A DNA stretch of 48,720 nucleotides from a virus. Lineage: Duplodnaviria; Caudoviricetes. The stretch is taken from IMG/VR virus record IMGVR_UViG_3300032330_000853, positions 1 to 48,720 of that record, one strand, 5' to 3'. The translations under genes and the position numbers were made by a program. The notes beneath the pieces were generated by a model, which saw only the letters and a program-made list of their open reading frames with translations, searched no databases and was not told the DNA's origin. How positions within the stretch are numbered: the first letter of the stretch is position 1; the number at the start of each line of letters is the position of its first letter. Positions 2-26,565 of this stretch are shown here, piece after piece.

Positions 2-451
2 GCAACTTGGACTGCAAACAATTTAGAACTTCCTTTAGCATGTATTCCTGGATTTGCTTCTGATAAAATAAACAATCTTGCACGTATTTATTATAATGAA
101 TGGCCACCAGAAGTTAATGATGTGATTGAAGCAGCACATGGATTTAAAGAATTATATCTTGAAGGTGATTCATATGGTCAAATTACTATAGATTCTTGTG
201 TATATGATCACGGTATTAAACCACCTACCGCTATTTCTTTAGATGTAGAAGGAAGCGAGTGGAGAGTTCTTGGTGGTGCGGAAAAAGTTTTAAAAGAGCA
301 TAAACCTAAAATTTGGTTATCTGGTCATCCTGAGTTTATGATACAACAGTGGAATGAATATTTATATGATTTAAGAAATTTTATTAAAGACATTGGTTAT
401 ACAGAAACATTTATTGATTATCAACATGAGGTCCATTTCTTTTATGAGTAG
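2..451 (+). CDS. FkbM-family SAM-dependent methyltransferase (5'-truncated by window edge)
   Basis: Frame is open from position 2. C-terminal FkbM signature TIDS...ISLDVEGSEWRVLGGA..LKEHKPKI. Confidence 0.85.
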   Translation, partial: ATWTANNLELPLACIPGFASDKINNLARIYYNEWPPEVNDVIEAAHGFKELYLEGDSYGQITIDSCVYDHGIKPPTAISLDVEGSEWRVLGGAEKVLKEHKPKIWLSGHPEFMIQQWNEYLYDLRNFIKDIGYTETFIDYQHEVHFFYE

Positions 452-1064
452 CATTGTCTTTTGCCCACATACAGATGATGCAATCTTTTCTTTAGGTGAT
501 TACATTATTGATAATAATGATAATAAATTTACAATTGCTTCAGCATTTGCGGGCATTCCAACAGATGAAGTAGGGCATAAAAAACATACTATATTAAGAC
601 AAGAGCATGATAAGGCTTGCTCTATGATCAATGCTAATGTTATTAATGGTGAACTATTTGATGATGTTTACGGCAAACAAAATGAAGAAGATTTAAATAA
701 TTGGATAAAAAATATAATTAATGAATATCAAAATGTTTATATTCCATTAGGAATACATCATCCAGACCATGTTTTACTATCTGAAACATTATTTAATTTA
801 ATGAAAGATTTTAATAAAACATATTTTATTTATGCAGAACTTCCTTATAGAGTGTCATATCCAGATTTGTATAAAAATAGATTAGATAAATTTAAATCTA
901 TTCATGATTTAGAAAATATTTCAGTTAATTTTACTAAACATAAAATTGATGCAATTAAAACTTATAACTCACAAATTACTTTGGCTTCAAATCGTTCATA
1001 CATAGATGAAGATCTTATTGGCAAGTTAGTTGTAGAAGAAAAACTTTGGAAGGTTATAAATTGA
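444..1064 (+). CDS. PIG-L/LmbE-family N-acetylhexosamine deacetylase
   Basis: PHTDD metal motif, R.QE..A, HHPDH and YAELPY. ATG at 444 overlaps the upstream stop. Confidence 0.85.
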   Translation: MSSIVFCPHTDDAIFSLGDYIIDNNDNKFTIASAFAGIPTDEVGHKKHTILRQEHDKACSMINANVINGELFDDVYGKQNEEDLNNWIKNIINEYQNVYIPLGIHHPDHVLLSETLFNLMKDFNKTYFIYAELPYRVSYPDLYKNRLDKFKSIHDLENISVNFTKHKIDAIKTYNSQITLASNRSYIDEDLIGKLVVEEKLWKVIN

Positions 1065-1909
1065 TAAAAACATATTTATATTCTTTTGATGAAACTGACT
1101 GTGCTGCTGATAAGTGGGACTATGGTTTACTTAAAGAAATTTTTAATAAATATGAAATAGAACAAACAAAAGTAACCTCTATACCAAAAGTTGATCGTGG
1201 CTTTATTGTAATTCCTGGACCTCAAAATGTTGGTCATGAAGAATATATCAATGATGAAATACAAAACATATCTAGATTGGTTTTGTTTATAACGGGAGAT
1301 GAAGAAGGTATCTTTGATATAAGTAAAATTAATCATCCTAATGCTGAAATATGGATTCAATACCCTCATGAAAAACACAAAGAATATAATAAACTTCCAA
1401 TAGGTGTTCCTCAACATTTAAAACAATTTATTCCAGATTATCCTATTAAACATTATAATTTATATTTTGGTGGACAAATTACTCATTCAAGAAGACAGCA
1501 ATTAGCAAAGGCTATACAAACAATGCCAGATACCCTTTTTAAGCCTACAGCAGGCTTTGCACAGGGTGATGAACCAAAAGACTACTACCGCAACCTTGCT
1601 AGTGCTAAAATTGCTCCAGCACCTTCTGGCGCAGTTGTAATAGACTCTTTTAGATTCTTTGAAGCCATAGAAATGTTATGTCTTCCCATAGGAGATAAAG
1701 TTGATCCAAAAGGTAATGCTATTGATTTTTATAATATTTTGTTTGGAGATAACATGCCAGTAGAATTTGTTTCTACTTGGAATGAATTACGCTTTTTAGT
1801 TCCTGAATTATTAAATCAATATCCTAAAAATATGCATAAAGTGGTATGCTGGTGGATAAAGTATAAACGAGATCTTGGAATAAAAATTATGAGGCAAGTT
1901 AATGAATAA
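1061..1909 (+). CDS. Exostosin-like (GT47-like) glycosyltransferase
   Basis: YFGGQ..HSRR and Y..NLASAKIAPAPSG....SFRFFEAIEMLCLP resemble the GT47 C-terminus. TTG start overlaps the upstream stop. Confidence 0.65.
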   Translation: MIKTYLYSFDETDCAADKWDYGLLKEIFNKYEIEQTKVTSIPKVDRGFIVIPGPQNVGHEEYINDEIQNISRLVLFITGDEEGIFDISKINHPNAEIWIQYPHEKHKEYNKLPIGVPQHLKQFIPDYPIKHYNLYFGGQITHSRRQQLAKAIQTMPDTLFKPTAGFAQGDEPKDYYRNLASAKIAPAPSGAVVIDSFRFFEAIEMLCLPIGDKVDPKGNAIDFYNILFGDNMPVEFVSTWNELRFLVPELLNQYPKNMHKVVCWWIKYKRDLGIKIMRQVNE

Positions 1910-2663
1910 AGATGATGTAACAATTATATTGGCTACATCTGTATTGCCAAGTCATCCAAACACACATATTATTGATGAAACAATCAACTCTATTAGAGTT
2001 CATTTTCCTAAAAATGAAATAATAATGCAAATAGATGGATTACGACAAGAGCAAATGGATCGTGAAAATGATTATAATGAATATAAAAATAGAATTTTAT
2101 GGAAATGTTTACATGAATATGAAAATGTACTTCCAATAATTTTTGATAAACATAGCCATCAAAGTACAATGATGCGTAAAACTATTAATCAAATACAAAC
2201 ATCGCTATTGCTTTATGTTGAAGGAGATACACCATTAACACCAGATGTAGGAATTGATTGGCAAAAGTGTCTTGACTTAATTGAATATGAAAAAGCAAAC
2301 ACCATTCGTTTTCATTTTGAAGCATCAATTCCAGAACCGCATAATCACTTAATGTTTGGACTTGAAGATGGATTTATGAAAACATCCCAATGGAGTCAAA
2401 GACCACATCTTAGCAGGGTTTCATACTATAGAGACGTAATACTTCCTCCCCTTGAAGATAAAGTTTTTATTGAAGACACAACCCATGGAATAATTCAAGA
2501 TGATATTTCACCATATAATATTTTTTTTGAAGAAGGTTGGAACAAACATAAACTTTGGATATATCATCCAGAAGGAAGTATTAAAAGATCTTATCATTTA
2601 GATGGTCGTGAAGGTGGAAGAAAGTTTACATCAGATGATGATGTTTGGTTTAATAAACAATGA
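1902..2663 (+). CDS. GT-A fold glycosyltransferase-like protein
   Basis: VTIILATS, IIMQIDG, LLYVEGD (DxD-like) and C-terminal HLDGR. Coupled with flanking glycosyltransferases. Confidence 0.6.
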   Translation: MNKDDVTIILATSVLPSHPNTHIIDETINSIRVHFPKNEIIMQIDGLRQEQMDRENDYNEYKNRILWKCLHEYENVLPIIFDKHSHQSTMMRKTINQIQTSLLLYVEGDTPLTPDVGIDWQKCLDLIEYEKANTIRFHFEASIPEPHNHLMFGLEDGFMKTSQWSQRPHLSRVSYYRDVILPPLEDKVFIEDTTHGIIQDDISPYNIFFEEGWNKHKLWIYHPEGSIKRSYHLDGREGGRKFTSDDDVWFNKQ

Positions 2664-3697
2664 GAGTTGGTATTATTGCCAGATCAGATAATACTGGACT
2701 TGGAAATCAAACAAGAGAATTAGTTAATATGCTTACTCCAAATAAGGTTATGCTTATTGACTCAACTTCCTTTAACAAAAATAAACAACATCCAGAATGG
2801 TATCAAAAATATGAAACAATTAAAACAAATGGTTTTCCAACTAAAGAAGAAATTGTTTCTTTTCTTGAAAACCTTGATGTTGTTATAAGTTGTGAAACAT
2901 TTTATGATCAAAACTTTGTAAAGTATGCTAAAAGAAGAAACGTTAAAACAATTCTTCAATACAATTATGAACTTTTTGGAAATCTTTCTACGCCAGAACT
3001 CCCAGTAGCAGATTTTTTGTTAGCACCTAGCAGTTGGAATATAAACCATGTTAAAAAACTTTTTGGCAGTAAATCAAATGTTATGTACTTGCCACCACCA
3101 ACTAATCCAAGTACATTTATTAATGCTAAAGAAATAAATATGTCTAAAGATCACAATAGAATATTGCATATTACTGGTAGAAAAGCAGCAAAAGATAGAA
3201 ATGGAACGGATACAGTTCTTGAAATGTTGCGGTATTCAAAGGCTGACTATGAATTAGTTATAAGAAGTCAAAATGAAGTAGAAACTAATATAAAAGACTC
3301 TAGGTTAACAATTGAGATTGGTAATCCAGATAATAGGGAAGATATGTATGCTGGGTTTGACGCTATGATACTTCCTAGACGATATGCTGGTCTTTGTTTA
3401 CCTATGAATGAGTCATTGCTTTCTGGACTCCCAGTTTTTATGACAGACATATCTCCAAACAATGAAATACTTCCAGCAAATTGGTTGGTTAAATCTTCAT
3501 CGCTTGGTACTTTTAGAACAAAAGTTAGAATTGAGTTATTTGAGGCTAACAGAAAAGAGTTAGCGTTATGCGTTGACAATTATATTGGTCTAACAAATAA
3601 ACAGGATGAAAAAGAAAAAGCATTTAATATAGGATTTAACAATTTCTCTAATAGTATCCTTAAAGATAAGTGGTTAGAAGTTATCTCTCAAATTTAG
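2660..3697 (+). CDS. GT4/GT-B glycosyltransferase
   Basis: N-terminal GIIARSDNTGLG and C-terminal Y..FDAMILPRRYAGLCLPMNESLLSGLPVFMTD (Glycos_transf_1 motif). Confidence 0.85.
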   Translation: MRVGIIARSDNTGLGNQTRELVNMLTPNKVMLIDSTSFNKNKQHPEWYQKYETIKTNGFPTKEEIVSFLENLDVVISCETFYDQNFVKYAKRRNVKTILQYNYELFGNLSTPELPVADFLLAPSSWNINHVKKLFGSKSNVMYLPPPTNPSTFINAKEINMSKDHNRILHITGRKAAKDRNGTDTVLEMLRYSKADYELVIRSQNEVETNIKDSRLTIEIGNPDNREDMYAGFDAMILPRRYAGLCLPMNESLLSGLPVFMTDISPNNEILPANWLVKSSSLGTFRTKVRIELFEANRKELALCVDNYIGLTNKQDEKEKAFNIGFNNFSNSILKDKWLEVISQI

Positions 3698-4388
3698 TTT
3701 TTGATTTAAACTGTGGTCTAAGTATATTGGATATTATATATTTAGAAGAACTATCAGAACTTGATAAGTATATTGATTGATCTTGTTTAATATCGTGTGA
3801 CTTTGCTACCAATGCACCATTTAAATAAACTTTAACGTCTTCCATGTATGTTCCACCAATATTAAACATATTTCCATACATAGATCTCCACAAAAAGGTA
3901 TCTCTCTGTATCAATACTTCTTTTAATTTTTCTTTTTCCATTGGCATTGGAACATGTAGTTCATAATCAAGCGGATTATTGAAGCCTAGTTTTATTAGTC
4001 TTTCATATGTCATTCTTAGTTTTTTAGTATATGGAGACCTACCGTTTAATTTTTCATACAGTTCAACCTTTTTAAGTAATGGCAATCCATGAAAAGTATT
4101 TATTTGTGTAATAGGTTTTACTATATAAAAATCATCATTCATTAAAACAAAATTCTCATTTATATCTTTTGACTCTGATATTTCTTTTAAGTTTTCAAAA
4201 GCATTTCTATATTTATGAAAAACTTGGGAAACTTGAATAAAGTTACCTGTATACCAATTTGGTTTTCCACCAACAACCCATATGTTTGAGTCTGGGAAAG
4301 ACGATATAACAGATCTAATTGAATACTTTAACTCTTCATTATCTCCATCTTTACATATGTATACAAAATCAGTCAACTGCTTATCCAA
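3681..4388 (-). CDS. Stealth-like hexose-1-phosphate transferase (short form)
   Basis: DFVY, DNEELKYSIRSV and ENFVLMNDDFY match Stealth CR1/CR2-type motifs. Confidence 0.6.
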   Translation of the reverse strand: MDKQLTDFVYICKDGDNEELKYSIRSVISSFPDSNIWVVGGKPNWYTGNFIQVSQVFHKYRNAFENLKEISESKDINENFVLMNDDFYIVKPITQINTFHGLPLLKKVELYEKLNGRSPYTKKLRMTYERLIKLGFNNPLDYELHVPMPMEKEKLKEVLIQRDTFLWRSMYGNMFNIGGTYMEDVKVYLNGALVAKSHDIKQDQSIYLSSSDSSSKYIISNILRPQFKSKTKFER

Positions 4389-5263
4389 TCAATTAAATTA
4401 ATTTTTGGTTCCCAACCTAAAACAGTTTTTGCTTTTGATATATCTGCAAGAGTTTCCCTTGCCTCACCAACTCTTTCTGGTACATAGATTATATTTTCTG
4501 AAAACATTTTAGCAATTTCATTTACTGAATAATTTTTTCCAGTTCCTATATTAAATATTTGTCCAAAATATTTTGAATCTATATTGCTTGTTGCTGCCAA
4601 AATATTAGCATTTACAACATCAGAAACATGTGTAAAATCTCTTTTTTGTTTTCCATCTCCAACTATTGTAAGAGATTGATTATCTTGTTTTTGTTTACCA
4701 AAAAGCCCTATTAATGGTGCATATTGTCCTTTAAGTGGCTGTCTATCACCATAAACATTAAAATATCTAAGTGATATTGTTTGTAAATTAAATATTTTGT
4801 TATAGTTTAAGCATAATTTTTCACCATTAGTTTTAGATAAAGAATAAACATTTAAACAGTCATCTGTTTGAGTTTCAGTATTGGGAACTTGATTAAGTCC
4901 ATATGCAGATGATGTAGAAGAATAAATAAATCTTTTAATATTTGCCTCTTTAGAACATTGCAAAACAGTAATGGTTCCAAGGCTATTAGTTCTTATTGTT
5001 TCAATAGGGTCTAGCATTGTTGCCTGTATTCTTGCTTTTGCTGCAACATGAAAAACATAGTCAACATTATCATATAAGGGTCTTGTTTTTTCATAGTCAC
5101 AAATATCATATTTATAATTACTTGCTTTATCATTCCAATAAAACTGAGTATTAGAGTTTGATGATTCGTTATCAATAACAATAACATCATAATTCATTTC
5201 TATTAATTTATCAACAATATGCGAACCAATAAAACCTGCTCCTCCAGTAACTAATGCTTTCAT
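4373..5263 (-). CDS. NAD-dependent nucleotide-sugar epimerase/dehydratase (GalE/WbpP-like)
   Basis: TGGAGFIGSH, YSSTSSAYG, YSLSK (YxxxK), LRYFNVYG and RDFTHVSD. Confidence 0.93.
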   Translation of the reverse strand: MKALVTGGAGFIGSHIVDKLIEMNYDVIVIDNESSNSNTQFYWNDKASNYKYDICDYEKTRPLYDNVDYVFHVAAKARIQATMLDPIETIRTNSLGTITVLQCSKEANIKRFIYSSTSSAYGLNQVPNTETQTDDCLNVYSLSKTNGEKLCLNYNKIFNLQTISLRYFNVYGDRQPLKGQYAPLIGLFGKQKQDNQSLTIVGDGKQKRDFTHVSDVVNANILAATSNIDSKYFGQIFNIGTGKNYSVNEIAKMFSENIIYVPERVGEARETLADISKAKTVLGWEPKINLIDWISS

Positions 5264-5991
5264 TTTATTGCCTCCTCAATAGAAAAAAATGGTTTATAGA
5301 AGTCTTTATCTTTAATCATATTACTAGTTTTACTAATATGCTCTTTAAAATACTGATCTCTAATATCAGAACCATATCTAATAATCATATTATCATCTGT
5401 CACTTGTGCATAATATAGTAATTCATCAAAATTTTTTATTTTATATTTATTATTAATACTTACATATTTTAAAACCCTGTGCCAGTATTCTGTATCTGCT
5501 CCACATAATACGTTATCAAGATAACCAAATATACTAAAAGCCTTTTTACTAAAAAATGCATGTGCATGATTATAAATAACATCACCTGGTTTTGAATGCC
5601 ATTCTGGTGCTACATTTCCAATTTTTATTTGTGTATCTTGTAGTGCAAGTAAACTATCATTATCAAAAAAATTCATTATTTTTTCAAATCTTGTTGAGTC
5701 AGAAAAATCATCAGCATCATGTGTTGTGTAAACATCAAAATTTTGTTTTTCCATTAATTGAATTCCAGTATTTTTGCTATAAAAACAACCACCATTTTGA
5801 GTATTATTGATTAGTTTAACTTTATCATTGGCTAAATATTGTTCTATTTTTAACAATGAATTATCTGTTGAACAATCATTAATAATATATAGTTCAAAGT
5901 TTTGAAATGTTTGATTTAGTATACTGTTTATTGCTCTCTCAACCAGTTTTTCTTCATTGTATACTGGCAAGATAACTAATAGTTTTTTCAT
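5260..5991 (-). CDS. GT2 glycosyltransferase
   Basis: LPVYNEE, INDCSTDNS, HDADD and GADTEY. Start moved to ATG 5991 behind a GGAG RBS. Confidence 0.9.
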   Translation of the reverse strand: MKKLLVILPVYNEEKLVERAINSILNQTFQNFELYIINDCSTDNSLLKIEQYLANDKVKLINNTQNGGCFYSKNTGIQLMEKQNFDVYTTHDADDFSDSTRFEKIMNFFDNDSLLALQDTQIKIGNVAPEWHSKPGDVIYNHAHAFFSKKAFSIFGYLDNVLCGADTEYWHRVLKYVSINNKYKIKNFDELLYYAQVTDDNMIIRYGSDIRDQYFKEHISKTSNMIKDKDFYKPFFSIEEAIK

Positions 5992-6007
5992 TAATGTCTC
6001 CAAATTA

Positions 6008-6046
6008 TTAGAAAAGCGGGTATACATTTATTATATACCCGCTTCT
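6008..6046 (-). terminator. Intrinsic terminator hairpin
   Basis: Perfect inverted repeat AAGCGGGTATA (6014-6024) / TATACCCGCTT (6034-6044), followed by a T-run on the minus strand, just after the holin-like gene. Confidence 0.7.
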
Positions 6047-7389: not shown

Positions 7390-7619
7390 TCTGTTACTGC
7401 CTCCCTTGTAACTAATACTATTGCACCATTTTGTTCTAAAGCATTCTTTAGGTTAACAACATATTGAAGTGCTTTAATTTTTTCATCATGAAACATTTTT
7501 ACAAATTGCTTCTCATCTAATTTTATCGTAAGAAAGTGTTCATTGTCAATAATATTAACGCCAAAACCTTTTGGTGGCTGAATGTTGTGCACAACTCTTC
7601 GCATAGATTCTGTATACAT
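7386..7619 (-). CDS. Hypothetical protein (paralog of 7144-7389)
   Basis: MYT..M......I.PP.GF...I.D...FL....DE..F...K..LE..GA.VL pattern shared with the neighbour. Confidence 0.75.
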   Translation of the reverse strand: MYTESMRRVVHNIQPPKGFGVNIIDNEHFLTIKLDEKQFVKMFHDEKIKALQYVVNLKNALEQNGAIVLVTREAVTE

Positions 7620-7822
7620 TATTTACGGCCCCATTGAATTTTATTCCAACTACGTTCATGAAAATAATATAAAATAGTTTTAGTTAATACTTCAAGCCCT
7701 GCAATTGATGCAGCAGTTATTGTTTTATGTGTTATAAAATATGATAAAACAAAAGTATCAATAGTTCCAATTATTCTCCAACTTATTGCTTTAATTGCAG
7801 ATCGTGATTTAGTTGCTCTCAT
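7619..7822 (-). CDS. DUF2061-family membrane protein
   Basis: RSAIKAISWRIIGTIDT...E..TK..LYYFHER.W.KI.WG signature. Confidence 0.85.
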   Translation of the reverse strand: MRATKSRSAIKAISWRIIGTIDTFVLSYFITHKTITAASIAGLEVLTKTILYYFHERSWNKIQWGRK

Positions 7823-8583
7823 ATGCCTAATTCTTTACGTTTTTGTGTAGCAGAAATAGCATGAATGTCTGCTCCCAAATCTACCTGCTCAATTTTGTAT
7901 CCTACATCTCTACCATAAACTATGTTTGTAATGTTTGGTAAACGCAATACCATTGCATCATCCATAAACTCATCTTTAGCAATATATTCCTTTACCTCAT
8001 CAAATGTAAGTGGATCTTTTTCACTTGTATTGTATGTGTTTCGGACTCCAAGCAATACCTGATTAGTTCTCATTCCAGCCTGCAAATACAAAGCATGGTG
8101 TCCTTCATGCCAAGGTTGATATCTTCCAAGCATCAAGGTTGTTGGAGCAGACCAATCGTGTAGGTTATACAATGATATAACTTCTGTTGCTTTTTCATAC
8201 GCATTTAACTCATGATTATTAAAAGCACAAGAATAGTTTTTTGGAACTTGCCACATTCTATTAGTGTCTTCAAAGCGTCCTTCTTCAATTGTGTTCATCC
8301 AGATAAGAATATCTGGCTTACCAAAAGCCTCACGAGTTTGTTCTGTCGGACAAACAAAGTCTACAATAACTGGAGCAACTCCTTGTTTAGCAATAAGTCT
8401 TGCCATCTCTCCCATGCGTCGTGCCTGCTCTATACGATCTTCTGGAGTAAACCCAAGATCAGAATTAACTGTTGCACGTATCTCATCTGCATTAAGATGT
8501 ATAGCGTTAATACGATCTTTAAGTGCTTTTGCTAATTCTGTTTTACCAGATCCAGGTAGACCAATTATTTGTATAATCATCAT
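7819..8583 (-). CDS. cysC: Adenylylsulfate (APS) kinase-like domain fused to an HxGH nucleotidyltransferase domain
   Basis: N-terminal GLPGSGKT, LNADEIR, DLGFTPEDRIEQARR and VDFVCP. C-terminal LGRYQPWHEGH and ISAT..R. Confidence 0.75.
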   Translation of the reverse strand: MMIIQIIGLPGSGKTELAKALKDRINAIHLNADEIRATVNSDLGFTPEDRIEQARRMGEMARLIAKQGVAPVIVDFVCPTEQTREAFGKPDILIWMNTIEEGRFEDTNRMWQVPKNYSCAFNNHELNAYEKATEVISLYNLHDWSAPTTLMLGRYQPWHEGHHALYLQAGMRTNQVLLGVRNTYNTSEKDPLTFDEVKEYIAKDEFMDDAMVLRLPNITNIVYGRDVGYKIEQVDLGADIHAISATQKRKELGI

Positions 8584-8864
8584 TACTCCATTGTCAATGC
8601 TTGCCACGTATTAGACCAGTCTTGTTTTGACTTATGCCTATTAAATTCCCTTGAAATTTCTCCACCTTCTAAGTATACCCCACCCCAAACACCCCACTCT
8701 TTTCCAGATATACCATTTGCAAAACATATTTTTTTAACGGGACATTGCATACAAACTTTATCTACTCCATTACGAAGTTCTAATTTGTCCTCATATTCTT
8801 CAAAATAAAGGTTTGTTTCAAGGCCTAAACAAGATGCCTCGTCTTTCCACAAATGCTGTTTCAA
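8583..8864 (-). CDS. whiB: WhiB-family Fe-S transcription factor
   Basis: Four Cys (ASC...VCMQCPV..IC) plus GVWGG. Confidence 0.92.
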   Translation of the reverse strand: MKQHLWKDEASCLGLETNLYFEEYEDKLELRNGVDKVCMQCPVKKICFANGISGKEWGVWGGVYLEGGEISREFNRHKSKQDWSNTWQALTME

Positions 8865-8866
8865 GA

Positions 8867-9076
8867 TTACTCCCTATACTTATTAGGGATATCCCAACCA
8901 TCACGACCAGGTTTGTAAACTTTGTGGACATACCACTTATCTTTTATTCTAATTCCATTGACTGATGTTTTAGCAACGTCTGATTCTTTTAAATCAATTA
9001 CGTCCCAACCATTCCACAATAGGTTATCATTTTTATTGACAATCTTTTCCATTGTGTTTAAACTTCTAATAAACAT
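8867..9076 (-). CDS. Hypothetical protein
   Basis: ORF with GGAG RBS, tightly packed between neighbours. Confidence 0.65.
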   Translation of the reverse strand: MFIRSLNTMEKIVNKNDNLLWNGWDVIDLKESDVAKTSVNGIRIKDKWYVHKVYKPGRDGWDIPNKYRE

Positions 9077-9084
9077 GTCTCTCC

Positions 9085-9435
9085 TTAGTATCTAAAAAGT
9101 CCAACTTCAATATTCTTTGCTTCAGCAGAATAAACTAATCTAGACTTTGATTCATTTGGTTTGCTTAAAAAAGCAAAATAGTTTACCTGATCCATATTTT
9201 TATCTAGCCATGCTGGAGCAGTATTATAAAACTTAATCTTTTTTCCTCTTGCCTTCATGCCTCTTTCAGATAAATTTGAAAACTCAGAAACAAAATTATT
9301 TATATTTAATGGACCAACAGAATAAATTATAAACTCCTGATCATCTTCCTTCATGGTAGACAAAGCAACGCTCATTGCACGAAGAAAGACATTATAGTCT
9401 TTAAATTCTGTCGTCCCCTGCACTGCTACTATCAT
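9085..9435 (-). CDS. Hypothetical protein, possibly SLOG/YspA-like
   Basis: MIVAVQGT.EF.DY N-terminus resembles YspA-like SLOG proteins. Weak assignment. Confidence 0.45.
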   Translation of the reverse strand: MIVAVQGTTEFKDYNVFLRAMSVALSTMKEDDQEFIIYSVGPLNINNFVSEFSNLSERGMKARGKKIKFYNTAPAWLDKNMDQVNYFAFLSKPNESKSRLVYSAEAKNIEVGLFRY

Positions 9436-9847
9436 TTGGCCCAACCCCTTTATTTAAATCATCTAAGATGTCCATCATCTTTTTTAATTCTTTTTTTGGC
9501 ACAGAGTACATATCTATTGGTTTTATAGTGTTTTCATCTATTCTTCCATTAATAGAATTAGCAGTATAAAACACATTGTCAACTGTCCAATATGCCATTC
9601 CTTCAGTTATTACAACTTTTAACATGTTTTTCTGAACATGTTTTTGTGACTGAGTTATAACTTTTGGTTTATCAAACATTTCTTTTGGAATAACATCTTT
9701 AATAATTTCATATATATTACTTTGTCTATATGTAATTTTTTTTAAAAATATATTTCTATCTTTGCTTGATACTTTAATTATAGACCAAACAACAATGAAT
9801 GTCAAGGCTGCTGGTAAAGTATAAAAAAATATTTTTAAAGAGTCCAC
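9401..9847 (-). CDS. Hypothetical membrane-anchored protein
   Basis: N-terminal TM helix. ORF in operon context. Confidence 0.6.
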   Translation of the reverse strand: MDSLKIFFYTLPAALTFIVVWSIIKVSSKDRNIFLKKITYRQSNIYEIIKDVIPKEMFDKPKVITQSQKHVQKNMLKVVITEGMAYWTVDNVFYTANSINGRIDENTIKPIDMYSVPKKELKKMMDILDDLNKGVGPNDSSSAGDDRI

Positions 9848-9849
9848 TG

Positions 9850-10026
9850 CTACTCTTTTTTGTCAATAACTTTTTTTGTTGCTGGAACTGGAACATCGTT
9901 AGTTACAAGACTAATAGCCTTATTTAACTTTATTTGTGTTTGTAATAAATTAAGTTCAAGATCAGACTTACTCTGTCTATAGAATGTTAATAGTTGTATT
10001 AACTCTTCTTTAGTTAAATCATCCAT
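9850..10026 (-). CDS. Small coiled-coil protein (58 aa, missed by ORF track)
   Basis: MDDLTKEELIQLLTFYRQSKSDLELNLLQTQIKLNK... fills the gap exactly. Confidence 0.65.
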   Translation of the reverse strand: MDDLTKEELIQLLTFYRQSKSDLELNLLQTQIKLNKAISLVTNDVPVPATKKVIDKKE

Positions 10027-10031
10027 TTTAC

Positions 10032-10400
10032 CTACCCCTTTTTGAAACTAAAAGCGCTTCCAATCCACGCTTTTTCTGTTTTTTTCTTCTCACGTTCTAC
10101 TATTGCACGACTCCATGCAAAACCTGCATCTCCGCCCCAGGCTAACCACATAATTTTTCCATTAGATGGATTTTCTGCGTTATCCCAATCTTTACCCTTT
10201 TTATCTACCTCATGACGTGAAAAAAAAGAATACATTCTTTTTACAGTATCAAGAGACATGGATGCACCATTTACAATATCAGTCGCTCTTCCCCATCCAA
10301 CTGGAGTTCCAGCACCTTTTGCTTTGCCATCTTCTTTATATTTTAAAGCACGACGTGCAGCAGCCTTCATGCCATCATTTGGTGTATATGTGTCTGCCAT
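10032..10400 (-). CDS. Conserved phage protein, probably head-associated
   Basis: GT.VGW.RA..I...SLDTVKRMYSFFSRH...W.AWGGDAG..W is a module type I associate with phage head proteins. Ends KAWIGSAFSF. Confidence 0.6.
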   Translation of the reverse strand: MADTYTPNDGMKAAARRALKYKEDGKAKGAGTPVGWGRATDIVNGASMSLDTVKRMYSFFSRHEVDKKGKDWDNAENPSNGKIMWLAWGGDAGFAWSRAIVEREKKKTEKAWIGSAFSFKKG

Positions 10401-10534
10401 TATTTATCCTTCTTTGGATGTTTAACAACATAGTTATCAATAATTGATTTAATTGTTCCATTTTTATTCATACGAACAATCTTACCATTTTTGATTTGTG
10501 TCGCATTAAATGAACCTGCTTTTTTCTTTGGCAT
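10400..10534 (-). CDS. Small basic protein (44 aa, missed by ORF track)
   Basis: MPKKKAGSFNATQIKNGKIVRMNKNGTIKSIIDNYVVKHPKKDK. TAATG coupling on both sides. Confidence 0.6.
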   Translation of the reverse strand: MPKKKAGSFNATQIKNGKIVRMNKNGTIKSIIDNYVVKHPKKDK

Positions 10535-11547
10535 TATTTTTTAAACGGATTAAGGTCAAAAATACTTCCACCCCAACCAGTCATTCCTTTACTAGTCATG
10601 TTATTCCAATTTTCTGGAAGCATATCAGTTGCTCCAAGTTCTCTTGCACGACGAATAATATGTGCTTTAGCCTTTTCATAATCTTTTGCACGACCAACAG
10701 ACTGAATAGCATTCATTAAATCTGCTCTATTTGCAATTGGGAAAGATCCATCTGGCATAGCATTTCCTGATTCTGCCATTCTTTCACGAGACGTTGTTGA
10801 ATAGTCACGCTTTTCTGATTTATATGTGCCACCACGACGTTTATATTCTTGAACAACCCATCCATTTGCAACTGCAGAAGGATAAACATCAAACTTATCT
10901 TTTGCTGCTTGTACAACTGCTGCATATAATCTTGGATTTGAAGGTGTTGATCCACTCTTACGTGGTTTAATTAAATCTTCATATTTAGGCTTTGCTGCTT
11001 TACCAATTTGTGCATCATACATTGCCATCATCATTTCTGAATCCATTTGTGGAATTCCTGAATCAGTTGAACCCATTTCAACAACTAAGTCTACAGATAC
11101 TGATAATGATTCAATTTTAACTACTTCTGACATACGAACATAATAAACATATTCTTCTTCAGACCATGAACCATCTTGTTCTTCATAGCAACGAACAATA
11201 ACTGGCTTATCATCTTCAGCATATTCCATTGAATATTCAGAACCAGGAAGTCCTAGAGTTCCAGGGTTTGTCATTACATATTCAACACGACCAACTTCAA
11301 TTTCATCATCTTCATTAATAAACATAACAAAGTCACCTTCTGTGACCATTGATTTTTCTACTGATGTAATTGACTTACGAGCAGTACTTGCCCATATAGC
11401 ACGAGCCTGTGCTGCTGCTTTAGCCTTTGTTGGATGACATCCATGTACTGTTCCATCTGCACTTACCGTTGGATATCCATCGCATCCGTAAGAGCCTTTT
11501 GCTCCTGCATGGTATCCTCCTGCTGGCTTTCCTTTTCCTGCTGGCAT
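10534..11547 (-). CDS. Modular multi-domain phage protein (four small modules, including DUF5872-like and DUF6582-like)
   Basis: GCH.T...A..Q module, beta-rich GDFV..GRVE module, YPSAVANGWVVQEYKRRGGTY module, and AMPDGSFPIAN..DL.NAI module. Ends GWGGSIFDL. Has its own promoter and GGAGG RBS. Confidence 0.65.
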   Translation of the reverse strand: MPAGKGKPAGGYHAGAKGSYGCDGYPTVSADGTVHGCHPTKAKAAAQARAIWASTARKSITSVEKSMVTEGDFVMFINEDDEIEVGRVEYVMTNPGTLGLPGSEYSMEYAEDDKPVIVRCYEEQDGSWSEEEYVYYVRMSEVVKIESLSVSVDLVVEMGSTDSGIPQMDSEMMMAMYDAQIGKAAKPKYEDLIKPRKSGSTPSNPRLYAAVVQAAKDKFDVYPSAVANGWVVQEYKRRGGTYKSEKRDYSTTSRERMAESGNAMPDGSFPIANRADLMNAIQSVGRAKDYEKAKAHIIRRARELGATDMLPENWNNMTSKGMTGWGGSIFDLNPFKK

Positions 11548-11572
11548 AATAAACCTCCTAGGTTATATACTG

Positions 11573-11581
11573 ATTATATCA
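11573..11581 (-). promoter_or_regulatory. Extended -10 promoter TGATATAAT
   Basis: Exact motif 26 nt upstream of ATG 11547. Repeated at four other gene boundaries. Confidence 0.65.
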
Positions 11582-11941
11582 GTTTTCTTTCTTAAACATA
11601 AGACGTTTAAGTTCCATAACTGACCACTGCTCATCTTTACTTAGTTTTGCCACTTCTGAATCTATAAGAGACTTTTTTGATAAGGTTATTACTGGATCAT
11701 CAGCAAGAAAGTCTATATTTATATACCCTTTTTCCCAAAGAGATAACATTTCTTGATTTATAGTATTTATATGCTCTGTGTATAGATCTGGCATAAGTTC
11801 TTTAATTTTTGGGGTAAAAGAATATAAAAAAGATCCGTTTGATGAATCAACCCCCACTATTTCTAGTCCACCATTAAGGATCAAATAGTCCATAATTTCT
11901 TGATCTTTTGGAATCATATTTTTATCTTCAGGATTAAACAT
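11579..11941 (-). CDS. Hypothetical protein (possible winged helix)
   Basis: ORF in operon with an LWEKGYI motif. Start uncertain. Confidence 0.6.
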   Translation of the reverse strand: MFNPEDKNMIPKDQEIMDYLILNGGLEIVGVDSSNGSFLYSFTPKIKELMPDLYTEHINTINQEMLSLWEKGYINIDFLADDPVITLSKKSLIDSEVAKLSKDEQWSVMELKRLMFKKEN

Positions 11942-12227
11942 TCTTTTTAATATCTTTTTTATTATCAATAAACTCAATTAATTTTTCCTTTGTTTGTAAT
12001 CCAGTTATGCGGTTAATTTCTTCACCGTTTTTTATTAGGATAAATGTTGGAATAGATTTTATTTCAAACTTTTTAGACAAAGCCATTTCAATTTCGGCAT
12101 CTATAATTTGAAAAGTGTTTGGAAACATATCTTTTGACAACTCTTCAACAATTGGCCTTACTTTCTTGCATGGCTGACACCAGTCTGCTGTAAAATAAAA
12201 TACAGAAATTTTATTTTTTTGATTCAT
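11934..12227 (-). CDS. trxA: Thioredoxin
   Basis: FTADWCQPCK active site and SIPTF cis-Pro motif. Confidence 0.9.
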   Translation of the reverse strand: MNQKNKISVFYFTADWCQPCKKVRPIVEELSKDMFPNTFQIIDAEIEMALSKKFEIKSIPTFILIKNGEEINRITGLQTKEKLIEFIDNKKDIKKNV

Positions 12228-12690
12228 TCTCTGCAGTTTCCTTTTCTATAATTGCTTTTTGTTTAAGAGTAGCATAATCATTGTACTCAAAATCTTCATC
12301 ACTTAATGTTTTCATAAATGGACAAAAAATCCTTGCTTCTTTCATACATTTTTTATGAAATGGATGAACATCAGAAAAAACTCTTCCTCCCCTTGATCTA
12401 AGCATTAAAACATCTGCGCTTTTCCATCTAGCACAATTTTCATTATTTTCAATTTTAATTCCACAATATGGACAAAGATCTTGTTTATAAATTTTATCTT
12501 CATTTATTTCATTAAGTTTTAATGCTCTTCCAAATTTAAATGCTGGTTTTGATTGCCAAGGTATAGGAACAATTTTTGCTAATCCATATTTTGTTTTATA
12601 TTCTTTGTTAACAGTTGCATCCGCATATGGTCTTGGCAAGCCCTTTTTATTTGTTATTTCCTTAGACCATTCAGTAGAATTTTTTATCAT
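12211..12690 (-). CDS. Hypothetical Zn-binding protein
   Basis: LCPYCG ... HKKC...A..FCP. Confidence 0.6.
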   Translation of the reverse strand: MIKNSTEWSKEITNKKGLPRPYADATVNKEYKTKYGLAKIVPIPWQSKPAFKFGRALKLNEINEDKIYKQDLCPYCGIKIENNENCARWKSADVLMLRSRGGRVFSDVHPFHKKCMKEARIFCPFMKTLSDEDFEYNDYATLKQKAIIEKETAENESKK

Positions 12691-13358
12691 ATTTTATTGT
12701 ATCCAAATGTTTTAAATTCCCAAAGCCATTCTTTATATATCTGATCTAAATATTTAGATGAAAAAACATCTTCTGGATTTATTGATTTTGGTCTAAATGC
12801 TTTTTCATTTTGGGTAATGCTTATCTTAGGTATATCATGTTTTATAAGTATACTATTAATTTCTGACTCTATTCCATTTTCATATATTAAAAAATTGTCT
12901 ACTTGTATATCGCCATCACCTGATAAATAAATATGTTTATTGCTTGTATGCCAAGGCCAACCAAGTTCATTATTAAAATATTTTTCAACTAAAATACTTT
13001 GCTCTATTTTATCTAAATTATTCCATATATAGTTTTTATTAATAAAATAAAGCCTATGAAAAAAATGAGAAAGAACAGCGTTGTATGGATTTCTAATAAA
13101 AATATATGACTTTATATCAGTTAAATCAACCTTTACATTTATTTCAGAATAAGACATATGATTATAAAAACCATCATAATTTCTTGGCTTATACCCATCA
13201 TAAATTTTTTCTTCTAAAGCCCATGCTGGATCATCTGATGTTCTAGGAGTTACAATTGCATCTTCTGGAACTACCATTGATAAAGGAATCTCTAAAGATG
13301 TTCCACCAACTTTTTTATTTTTTAATAATAAAAAATTGTTGGATTTTGATAAAATCAT
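12687..13358 (-). CDS. Sulfotransferase (Sulfotransfer_2 / carbohydrate sulfotransferase-like)
   Basis: 5'-PSB loop KKVGGTS, 3'-PB motif FIRNPY..VLS, and C-terminal F..FGY. Confidence 0.75.
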   Translation of the reverse strand: MILSKSNNFLLLKNKKVGGTSLEIPLSMVVPEDAIVTPRTSDDPAWALEEKIYDGYKPRNYDGFYNHMSYSEINVKVDLTDIKSYIFIRNPYNAVLSHFFHRLYFINKNYIWNNLDKIEQSILVEKYFNNELGWPWHTSNKHIYLSGDGDIQVDNFLIYENGIESEINSILIKHDIPKISITQNEKAFRPKSINPEDVFSSKYLDQIYKEWLWEFKTFGYNKI

Positions 13359-16120: not shown

Positions 16121-17110
16121 TTAAACAATTCTTCCAATGCTTGGTCCAGTTCCTTCTTCTTTTATTGCACGAAAACATGAAGTACATATTCCACTATATG
16201 CTTTTTTGATTGCTTCCTGTCTTTCATGACCCTGCCAAATTTCCTTAATAGATTTATCTTTTATATTTATATATACTGTTTCATAATTAAAATCTGCACA
16301 ACATAAATATACATTTCCAGTTGCTGAAATAAATAATGATTCTGGATAGCCCTGAGAACATCCAATAACTTTTCCTTTGTTTTTTTCTTTAATTGCATTT
16401 TGATTTGAAATAATATTAAACTTTTCTAAAACACCTGTTCTATCTCCAAGATTATTTCTTCCAAAAATATTTATTCTTGGTAGTATAACTTTCATTTCTT
16501 TTACTATGTTTGCTAAAGTTCCAGTATTAATATCTGTATCATAAATTGGCGCATTATCAAGTACTTCTATCCAACCATTATTTTTAAACAAAGATCTTTC
16601 ATTAATTCCATTTGCCTGAATACAAAAATCTTCTGGTTTAAAAAGATCAACCAGTTGTTCTTCTGCATATTTAAGATTTTCTATTAATTTAGGAAAAATT
16701 TTGATATTAAATCCAGTGAAATTAGACCATTGTTCTGGATTTAATGAAGGAACATTTATAATTAATTGATTAACAATATCTTTATATTCTTTAATTAAAT
16801 CTATTTTTTCTTTTGTAAGATTGACACCGTTTGTATATATTGCTATATAAATTTTATATTTTCTGTGAAGATCTAACATTTCTTTAAAATATGGATAAAG
16901 CAAAACTTCATTAAAATGAATTGGTGAATTATAAATATCTTTTCTTACCCAAGAACCTCTGCCAGCATCTAGTTGTTTGAATATGTCTTCCATTGTTTCA
17001 ATAGACATATTGGATTTATTTTCTTTTGAATTACCAGCATATGCCACTGGACAAAACCAGCACTTTGCATTACAAATTCCATTTGGATCAATGTTTATAT
17101 GCTGTATCAT
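16121..17110 (-). CDS. Radical SAM protein with SPASM/twitch domain
   Basis: CNAKCWFC (CxxxCxxC), YTNG, and C-terminal C...GNVYLCCAD...CTSC. Confidence 0.9.
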   Translation of the reverse strand: MIQHINIDPNGICNAKCWFCPVAYAGNSKENKSNMSIETMEDIFKQLDAGRGSWVRKDIYNSPIHFNEVLLYPYFKEMLDLHRKYKIYIAIYTNGVNLTKEKIDLIKEYKDIVNQLIINVPSLNPEQWSNFTGFNIKIFPKLIENLKYAEEQLVDLFKPEDFCIQANGINERSLFKNNGWIEVLDNAPIYDTDINTGTLANIVKEMKVILPRINIFGRNNLGDRTGVLEKFNIISNQNAIKEKNKGKVIGCSQGYPESLFISATGNVYLCCADFNYETVYINIKDKSIKEIWQGHERQEAIKKAYSGICTSCFRAIKEEGTGPSIGRIV

Positions 17111-25569: not shown

Positions 25570-25894
25570 TTTTTTCCTTTGCTATCTTCAATAATACCAG
25601 ATATCCTATTAAATCATCAATGTCATTGTCTCCAACATAGTCAGTGCCCTTCATAAGTCTGCTTAATTTATCATCAATTCTAACTCTAAGTTGTTCTACT
25701 GGGTCTGCTTTGCTAAAAATCCTAACTGGATCAAGTGCTGAATCTCCATAGGCAATATTTTTTTCAATTAACATGCCTGCTATTGAATGACAGGCAGTCC
25801 ATATGTGAGGACCAGAGGGTGCTCCAACCGACCTTAAATATAAGTCTTGACAACTAAAATTTTTTACATCTTCATATACTGAATCAAGTTTCAT
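25559..25894 (-). CDS. Nucleotide-modification-associated helical protein (DUF1599-like)
   Basis: KN.AYGDS...RIDDKLSRL...DDLIGY pattern. Confidence 0.6.
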   Translation of the reverse strand: MKLDSVYEDVKNFSCQDLYLRSVGAPSGPHIWTACHSIAGMLIEKNIAYGDSALDPVRIFSKADPVEQLRVRIDDKLSRLMKGTDYVGDNDIDDLIGYLVLLKIAKEKNVN

Positions 25895-26565
25895 AGATAG
25901 TTCTCCTTATGCCAAGAAATATAGTTTGTATCAAAATTATTAATTCCAGCCCTGTAGTGCTTAGTGTAATCATTGTGTATCTTTGCTGCTTCTTTTTGAG
26001 TATAGATTATAAAATTATCTAAATTATTTTCTTCAATCGTTTTAAAAATTGATTTTGTAAAAGTAACATAGCCTGTTTGATATATAGAATAATCAACAAT
26101 GTTATTATATTTTTTATTTGTTTCTTTATTTAAATAATAAATGTTTTTAATATCTGCTAATATGTTTTTTAAAAATATACTTTGTGGAGATGATGCAAAT
26201 ATCATCTGTGTTAAGCCATGGTTTCCTGGCTCCTTTGATACAGCAAAGTCTAAATCTGAATCAAGCCATGCATCTATTGGTTTTTTGCATACCATATCAA
26301 TGTCTGAATAAAAGCCACCATTAACATACAAACACATATATCTCCATAGTGTTGCTCTTAATACATTAACATTATAAGATTTATATATTTCAAACCATTC
26401 ATCTCCAAAATTATCTAATACAAACTGTTCTCTATCTTTTGAAGAAACATATTTATAGTCCCATGTTTTATTTTCATTTTGCCAAGACAGCGAACATTCA
26501 AGTGTTTTTGGACCAAGATCTTTGTACTCATGTTCATATGTTTGCCAAATAATTTTAGGAATCAT
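25891..26565 (-). CDS. GT32 (OCH1-like, DxD) glycosyltransferase
   Basis: MIPKIIWQT, RY..LY..GG.YSDID. Confidence 0.85.
   Translation of the reverse strand: MIPKIIWQTYEHEYKDLGPKTLECSLSWQNENKTWDYKYVSSKDREQFVLDNFGDEWFEIYKSYNVNVLRATLWRYMCLYVNGGFYSDIDMVCKKPIDAWLDSDLDFAVSKEPGNHGLTQMIFASSPQSIFLKNILADIKNIYYLNKETNKKYNNIVDYSIYQTGYVTFTKSIFKTIEENNLDNFIIYTQKEAAKIHNDYTKHYRAGINNFDTNYISWHKENYL

Follow-up and report, generated by a model that had tools for sequence, protein, structure and literature searches.

A widespread phage fusion protein as a candidate miniature PAPS synthase with a putative third type of ATP sulfurylase

IMG/VR record IMGVR_UViG_3300032330_000853 comprises a 48.7-kb genome fragment of a tailed phage with low GC, and its entire 48,720 nucleotides are the window of this analysis. 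One window gene encodes a fusion of a kinase-like domain, related to the kinases of adenosine 5′-phosphosulfate (APS), to a nucleotidyltransferase (NT) domain (Table 1). With a probability of about 0.72, we read this fusion as a miniature synthase of 3′-phosphoadenosine 5′-phosphosulfate (PAPS) that feeds a phage sulfotransferase (ST). The same probability applies to its core, namely that the 112-residue NT domain, derived from NMNAT and about one third the size of Sat, is a third ATP sulfurylase family that supplies PAPS in phages and has the bacterial roles described below. To our knowledge, the known ATP sulfurylase families are two, Sat and CysDN.

The folds of both domains, their conserved active-site residues and their gene contexts are established. 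The preliminary description of this DNA had proposed that an APS-kinase-like domain is joined to an HxGH nucleotidyltransferase domain, and all the motifs it named are located in the open reading frame (ORF): GLPGSGKT at residues 8-15, LNADEIR at 30-36, DLGFTPEDR at 42-50, GRYQPWHEGH at 153-162 and ISATQKR at 243-249. We place the start at the ATG at 8583, which GGAG precedes and which agrees with homologs of 253 residues, whereas the ORF finder started from the GTG at 8607. PHROG 10255 ('kinase') matches the protein at full length (residues 1-253, E 1.6e-64), and the AlphaFold model of the whole fusion has a predicted local distance difference test score (pLDDT) of 95.8. The fusion is a common phage protein, with 6649 relatives among 8000 scored candidates and an estimated 1900 or so IMG/VR stretches carrying the family.

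Human PAPSS1 (1x6v), Aquifex 2gks and Thiobacillus 3cr8 likewise join an APS-kinase fold to an HxxH nucleotidyltransferase, PAPSS1 in the same kinase-first order as the phage fusion. The phage kinase domain aligns with these three at Z 16.6-17.3, all fold comparisons being made with VIA-align. The phage protein differs in having 254 residues instead of 546-630, no kinase lid and a second domain that is NMNAT-derived, lacks QxRN and reaches only Z of about 6 to their sulfurylase domains. Conservation was counted in an alignment of 56 diverse fusion sequences.

The kinase domain is matched by the APS kinase family PF01583 over fusion residues 2-86 (E 4e-16; 59.7 bits, cut-off 21.1). Its five top structural matches are all APS kinases (Z 16.6-18.5), the best being 4rfv with Z 18.5 and a root-mean-square deviation (rmsd) of 1.7 over 128 aligned residues; gluconate kinase scores lower, at Z 15.2. 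K14 and R36 are invariant, D33, F45, R50 and P79 are nearly so, and FVCP at 76-79 is kept. In fungal APS kinase, their likely counterparts are the lysine of the P-loop and, for APS binding, an Asp, an Arg, a Phe and an Ile-Ser-Pro loop. Compared with CysC (TIGR00455, PF01583), the domain keeps the P-loop and the APS-site residues and passes the Pfam cut-off, but has neither the lid nor a score above the TIGR00455 cut-off. From sequence and model, it is an APS-kinase derivative that is likely active.

The NT domain has G153, R154, Q156, H159, H162, G224, R225, G228 and R249 invariant in 56/56 sequences and D226 in 46/56, and folds on its own with a pLDDT of 95.8. Its YGRD stands, as we take it, where NMNAT has YSGN. 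It shares the superfamily fold, HxxH, the GR(D) loop and the final IS(A/G)TxxR with Sat (PF01747; 1v47, Allochromatium), the GRD loops being equated by sequence position and not by superposition, and lacks the PUA-like or C-terminal domain of Sat. With MJ0541 and NadM (Z 9.2-9.3) it has the motif GR(F/Y)QPxHxGH in common but, unlike them, it is found in sulfur operons. We infer from these gene contexts whether it works like Sat.

The first context is bacterial sulfate assimilation. On two bacterial contigs, cysG, cysI, cysH, a DUF2061 gene, a lidless kinase and the NT stand as separate genes in one run. An alphaproteobacterial order, represented by 11 possibly incomplete genomes of 0.6-1.2 Mb, has the NT in 10, and the same run occurs in all 9 genomes with contigs reaching far enough, the tenth NT contig being cut. 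CysD above the cut-off was found in none of the 11 genomes, and Sat in one, at a separate gene cluster. The operon's CysH carries CC and CxxC cysteines, which we take to mark APS-using reductases. Since the sole missing step of the operon is ATP sulfurylase and its sole unassigned enzyme is the NT, the NT is the candidate for that step.

The second context is the APS reductase of small genomes that we place, by inference, near SAR11 (the G439 family). Among 81 of them, 37 have the NT, 28 aprA and 4 Sat, and the NT occurs in 27/28 genomes with aprA versus 10/53 without (Fisher p 3e-12, uncorrected for kinship). In 11/27 genomes, the two genes share a strand and the NT precedes aprA by at most 4 kb, in 8 of these by 1.4 kb; in the other 16, it lies elsewhere, often with a kinase among unrelated catabolic genes. 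CysD was looked for in G439 itself, with no match. In L518, aprM- and aprB-like ORFs occupy the space between the NT and aprA, and the NT has no kinase gene beside it. In the sat-aprMBA operon of Allochromatium, as described in PMC3779200, sat holds that upstream position, so Sat and the NT occupy the same genomic slot before APS reductase genes.

The third context is fusion to full APS kinases that score above the TIGR00455 cut-off, with the NT first in P0174 and P0314 and the kinase first in P0214, P0226 and P0318. Another NT is fused to a DUF2061-like start. Sampled evenly across the class, the NT is rare (11/401 genomes, G291 included). A Sulfotransfer_3 gene comes directly after it or lies within 2.7 kb in 3/7 examined genomes, and likewise at 0.6 kb in G041.

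APS is the only metabolite common to the three contexts, and the reaction expected of an HxxH adenylyltransferase acting on it is APS + PPi to ATP + sulfate; hence the NT would be an ATP sulfurylase (EC 2.7.7.4). In the proposed mechanism, the NT domain would make APS from ATP and sulfate, and the lidless kinase would convert APS to PAPS, pulling the unfavourable first step. The ST of the phage, the likely consumer, would then spend the PAPS. The acceptor may be a phage-made glycan or a modified protein on the virion or the host surface, a guess to which we give less than even odds.

The points that weigh against a miniature PAPS synthase lie in the enzyme, the cellular genomes and the phage counts. 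In the kinase, the RDPKGLY lid is indeed missing, as had been noted before; the alignment displays a clean deletion, and 5/56 aligned relatives keep the lid. The TIGR00455 score is 59 bits against a cut-off of 138.7. In 31/56 rows, the DGD motif has Asn in place of its first Asp, and PMC11697783 ties this motif to kinase activity through a double mutant. Most of the cellular genomes are incomplete, which makes the absences there soft, and three fusion-bearing bacteria (G448, G295 and G041) have CysD matches.

The NT domain does not resemble Sat in sequence. A 43-sequence NT profile finds first, in the PDB, the archaeal NMNAT MJ0541 (1f9a, E 2.5e-13) and NadM (2qjt, E 2e-12), and no Sat appears among the best 60 of its 62 matches at E up to 1. 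NMNAT/NadM models match the last 112 residues of the fusion weakly (E about 1e-5; 25 bits, family cut-off 127), PF01747 gives no match to the domain at E up to 10, and the CysD model TIGR02039 is not among its 9 NCBIfam matches. The place of QxRN in Sat is taken by GRYQP and QxRN itself is missing, while Sat, according to PMC3779200, binds sulfate via the QxRN loop (Gln and Arg) together with the GRD loop. In fold, PPAT, NadM and NMNAT are tied at Z 9.2-9.4 above Sat, whose best match is Thermus 1v47 (Z 8.1, rmsd 3.0, 108 aligned residues) and whose others score 5.6-6.0. The clusters found for the domain in the ESM Atlas are labelled 'cytidyltransferase-like' only.

Sat ancestry was therefore rejected on sequence, by the PF01747 and profile results; the fold search cannot tell Sat apart from the remaining HxxH enzymes. 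Judged by its sequence relatives, the NT domain is a descendant of archaeal NMNAT/NadM and not of Sat. The Sat-type C-terminal domain of the preliminary description is hence given up. What endures of its sulfate-to-PAPS proposal is the reading of a miniature PAPS synthase feeding an ST, now with strong support from the independent contexts of the cys operon, aprA, the kinase fusions and the ST neighbours.

The same ancestry would suit an NT that adenylylates nicotinamide mononucleotide, a sugar phosphate or a phosphonate, the kinase then phosphorylating the adenylate to a 3′-phosphoadenosine product other than PAPS. Sequence and fold nearest to NMNAT/NadM, PPAT and cytidylyltransferases, the loss of both QxRN and the kinase lid, and a NADAR gene that separates the fusion of phage Sano from its ST-like gene all agree with it. 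However, about 25 residues matching MJ0541 76-109, after the third strand, are deleted in the NT family, and we take this segment to carry the nicotinamide-stacking Trp. Moreover, the three contexts share APS only and none is an operon for nicotinamide adenine dinucleotide (NAD). We consider such another substrate unlikely.

As to the client of the PAPS synthase, the preliminary description had pointed to an ST about 4 kb away with both PAPS-binding motifs. Its location and motifs stand: the gene shares the strand of the fusion, is located upstream at a distance of 4.1 kb, or ten ORFs, and encodes KKVGGTS and RNPYNAVLS, of which K16-VGG and R89-x-P91 are conserved in its family. Its assignment comes only through relatives, as the ORF alone is below the PF03567 cut-off (E 0.03; 14.9 versus 22 bits). 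In the family alignment, PF03567 is found in 13/22 members at E up to 1, with a best value of 9e-7, and PF00685 in 8/22. A profile search found no PDB relative of the family.

The fusion is accessory in its phage group, being present at 52/124 loci found via whiB or a core neighbour. A direct PF03567 search hit 6/42 phage records and missed G005, which has a clear relative of the window ST, so it was replaced by our own profiles with Pfam checks. After merging of loci at 97% identity, ST-like genes occur in 17/32 clusters with the fusion versus 3/48 without it (p 3e-6). An ST-like gene is present in all 7 near-complete fusion-bearing genomes, in 4 by a Pfam ST match (one at E 0.05) and in 3 by our own profiles only. 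None was found in the complete fusion-free G012 or in the partial, site-spanning G015, G016 and G017; G011, G013 and G014, where the fusion site is not spanned, were left out of the counts. A Pfam check of control proteins, 61 of 164 clusters picked by eye, gave one ST match, in the fusion-bearing G001.

The two genes can also be adjacent. An ST-like gene stands directly upstream in 23/152 distinct fusion proteins, and these genes form four profile groups, two of which are possibly one family. In L106, the closest relative with a fusion 94% identical, 15 bases separate the end of an ST gene of the window family from the fusion downstream. This family abuts the fusion also in L008 and L048, as well as in 11/49 clusters collected from the ST side. 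Among Sano-like phages, each of the 8 distinct fusion carriers has an ST-like gene no more than about 0.8 kb away, with a weak Pfam match (PF17784, E 4e-4).

In Xylella phage Sano (L082:4957-6726), the ST-like gp33, annotated as hypothetical, the NADAR gp34 and the fusion gp35 are consecutive. The phage genomes G006 and G007 (L326-L337) have four and five ST-like genes, respectively, and in G006 three form a tandem run.

The counts on the other side are as follows. The ST enrichment fades when loci are merged at 90% identity (5/8 versus 0/9, p 0.009) and further at 85% (1/2 versus 0/3, p 0.4). Fusion loci supplied the seeds of most ST profiles, and only 8/17 whole-genome matches to these profiles fit a Pfam ST family. 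Viewed from the ST side, the NT is found at 31/75 loci, no more than the 52/124 background; whole records give 9/18 and the near-complete ones 3/3. The co-occurrence in related phages, a check proposed in the preliminary description, is thus present at 97% identity and weaker after stricter merging.

A rival reading is an NT that truly makes or consumes APS but feeds or drains the sulfur metabolism of the host as an auxiliary metabolic gene, the ST 4 kb away being no client. The same module in bacterial assimilatory and APS-reductase operons would fit this, as would the reading of phage cysC genes as sulfur auxiliary genes in PMC10914622. The window ST is ten ORFs off with a perfect sigma-70 motif (9805-9777) in between, and its family occurs in only 3/80 fusion loci. 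On the other hand, that family abuts the fusion in L106 and the 11/49 ST-anchored clusters, and different ST families occupy the same upstream slot. No cysH or sulfite reductase gene was found among 30 scanned window ORFs or the frequent neighbour clusters inspected. A role in host sulfur metabolism alone appears improbable.

A further point against a miniature PAPS synthase is one phage clade that has the ST family and a kinase and no NT in its incomplete records. Such kinase-only versions beside an ST, in this clade and in RSL1, would fit a reading in which the kinase half alone matters, capturing host-made APS, while the NT has decayed or turned regulatory as an appendage that binds ATP or APS. 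A further version, in RsoM2USA, is without a confirmed ST. Against this, the catalytic histidines and arginines of the NT are invariant in 56/56 diverse fusions, and the NT stands alone upstream of APS reductase genes. A kinase-only role is thus very unlikely.

In that clade (L566:6754-7170, L586:12579-12995, L578, L580-L584 and L589), a solitary lidless kinase of 139 residues lies 1.9 kb from an ST of the window family. Oxygenase- and methyltransferase-like genes surround it, and the records checked for the NT are 38-79% complete. In Ralstonia phage RSL1 (L083:5989-12226), a lidless kinase is fused to a different C-terminal domain, within a nucleotide-sugar cluster that includes a clear PF03567 ST.

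Table 1. Coordinates of the fusion, its domains and nearby features in the window
Feature	Position	Strand	Basis
Fusion, candidate miniature PAPS synthase, 254 residues	7819..8583	-	Pfam, NCBIfam, PHROG, AlphaFold, fold searches
APS-kinase-like domain, about residues 1-141	8161..8583	-	Conservation in 56 sequences; structural matches
NMNAT-derived NT, 112 residues (143-254), candidate new-type ATP sulfurylase	7819..8157	-	Profiles, fold, gene context
Divergent ST-like protein, 223 residues, likely PAPS consumer	12687..13358	-	Family matches PF03567/PF00685
DUF2061 small membrane protein, 67 residues	7619..7822	-	PF09834 E 2e-21; start overlaps fusion stop in ATGA
WhiB transcription factor	8583..8864	-	PF02467 E 2e-10; stop overlaps fusion start
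Glycan block	393-6027	switch at about 3690	PIG-L deacetylase, GT47-like, GT1-like, Stealth-like, NAD epimerase, GT2

The coupling of the fusion to a DUF2061 membrane gene, also part of the preliminary description, is borne out by the family match and the overlap. A DUF2061 match is present at 76/80 fusion loci (L001-L080) and, as above, in the bacterial cys operon. DUF2061 accompanies the module in phages and bacteria, and a role in sulfate supply is our guess. On the phage-like contig L089 (4337-8022), the fusion is surrounded by two alkanesulfonate-monooxygenase-like genes and two DUF2061-like ones, a further sulfur link.

The glycan target that had been suggested for the ST gained no specific support, as fusion-free relatives carry glycosyltransferase blocks too. 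No glycan genes are annotated within 12.7 kb around the Sano fusion. Genes often near the fusion at the 80 loci include 2-oxoglutarate-Fe(II) oxygenases, Asp/Arg hydroxylases, Trp halogenase, carbamoyltransferase and N-acetylglucosamine transferase, a set suited to protein or glycan modification. Further along the window are a DXD glycosyltransferase (25891-26565) and a radical SAM/SPASM gene (16121-17110), the latter present at 1/80 fusion loci.

By eye, the window has virion-like, recA-like, polymerase-like and terminase-like ORFs, and complete relatives of the phage are 100-118 kb. Sigma-70 motifs around the region are not in excess, with 34 observed versus 40 in shuffles. Two 12-of-12 motifs are on the minus strand, one at 14265-14236 upstream of the ST block and the other at 9805-9777 upstream of the whiB-fusion-DUF2061 block.

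WhiB is described as a marker of actinophages (PMC10202952), and freshwater Nanopelagicales isolates are reported in PMC12817590 to be without the full assimilatory sulfate reduction pathway. From whiB, a streamlined freshwater actinobacterium of the Nanopelagicales type without sulfate activation is the probable host. The phage would then carry both activation steps because its host lacks them.

In the literature searched, which covered few subscription papers and main texts rather than supplements, we found no description of the NT domain as an ATP sulfurylase. Published work treats phage cysC genes as auxiliary genes of sulfur metabolism; PMC10914622 counts 62 of them, its main text does not contain 'fused', 'DUF2061' or 'sulfotransferase', and its supplements may list such proteins. 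The only fusion listed in PMC4921024 is CysN-CysC, which was already known. The 'kinase' label of PHROG 10255 and the phage 'cysC' annotations leave the C-terminal domain of the fusion unnamed. The module is real and widespread, a likely new form of PAPS synthase that probably hides a new enzyme family.

If so, a third ATP sulfurylase is hidden under the labels 'cytidyltransferase-like' and 'kinase', and a 254-residue PAPS synthase would be a handy reagent. The NT would complete sulfate assimilation in the streamlined alphaproteobacterial order and, in SAR11-like genomes without sat, would supply the partner that APS reductase is missing. Predictions from genomes of which organisms activate sulfate would then err for some abundant streamlined bacteria. 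Many phage genes now regarded as 'cysC' auxiliary genes would be complete PAPS synthases for sulfation rather than cysteine synthesis, and thousands of phage records would gain their own PAPS supply.

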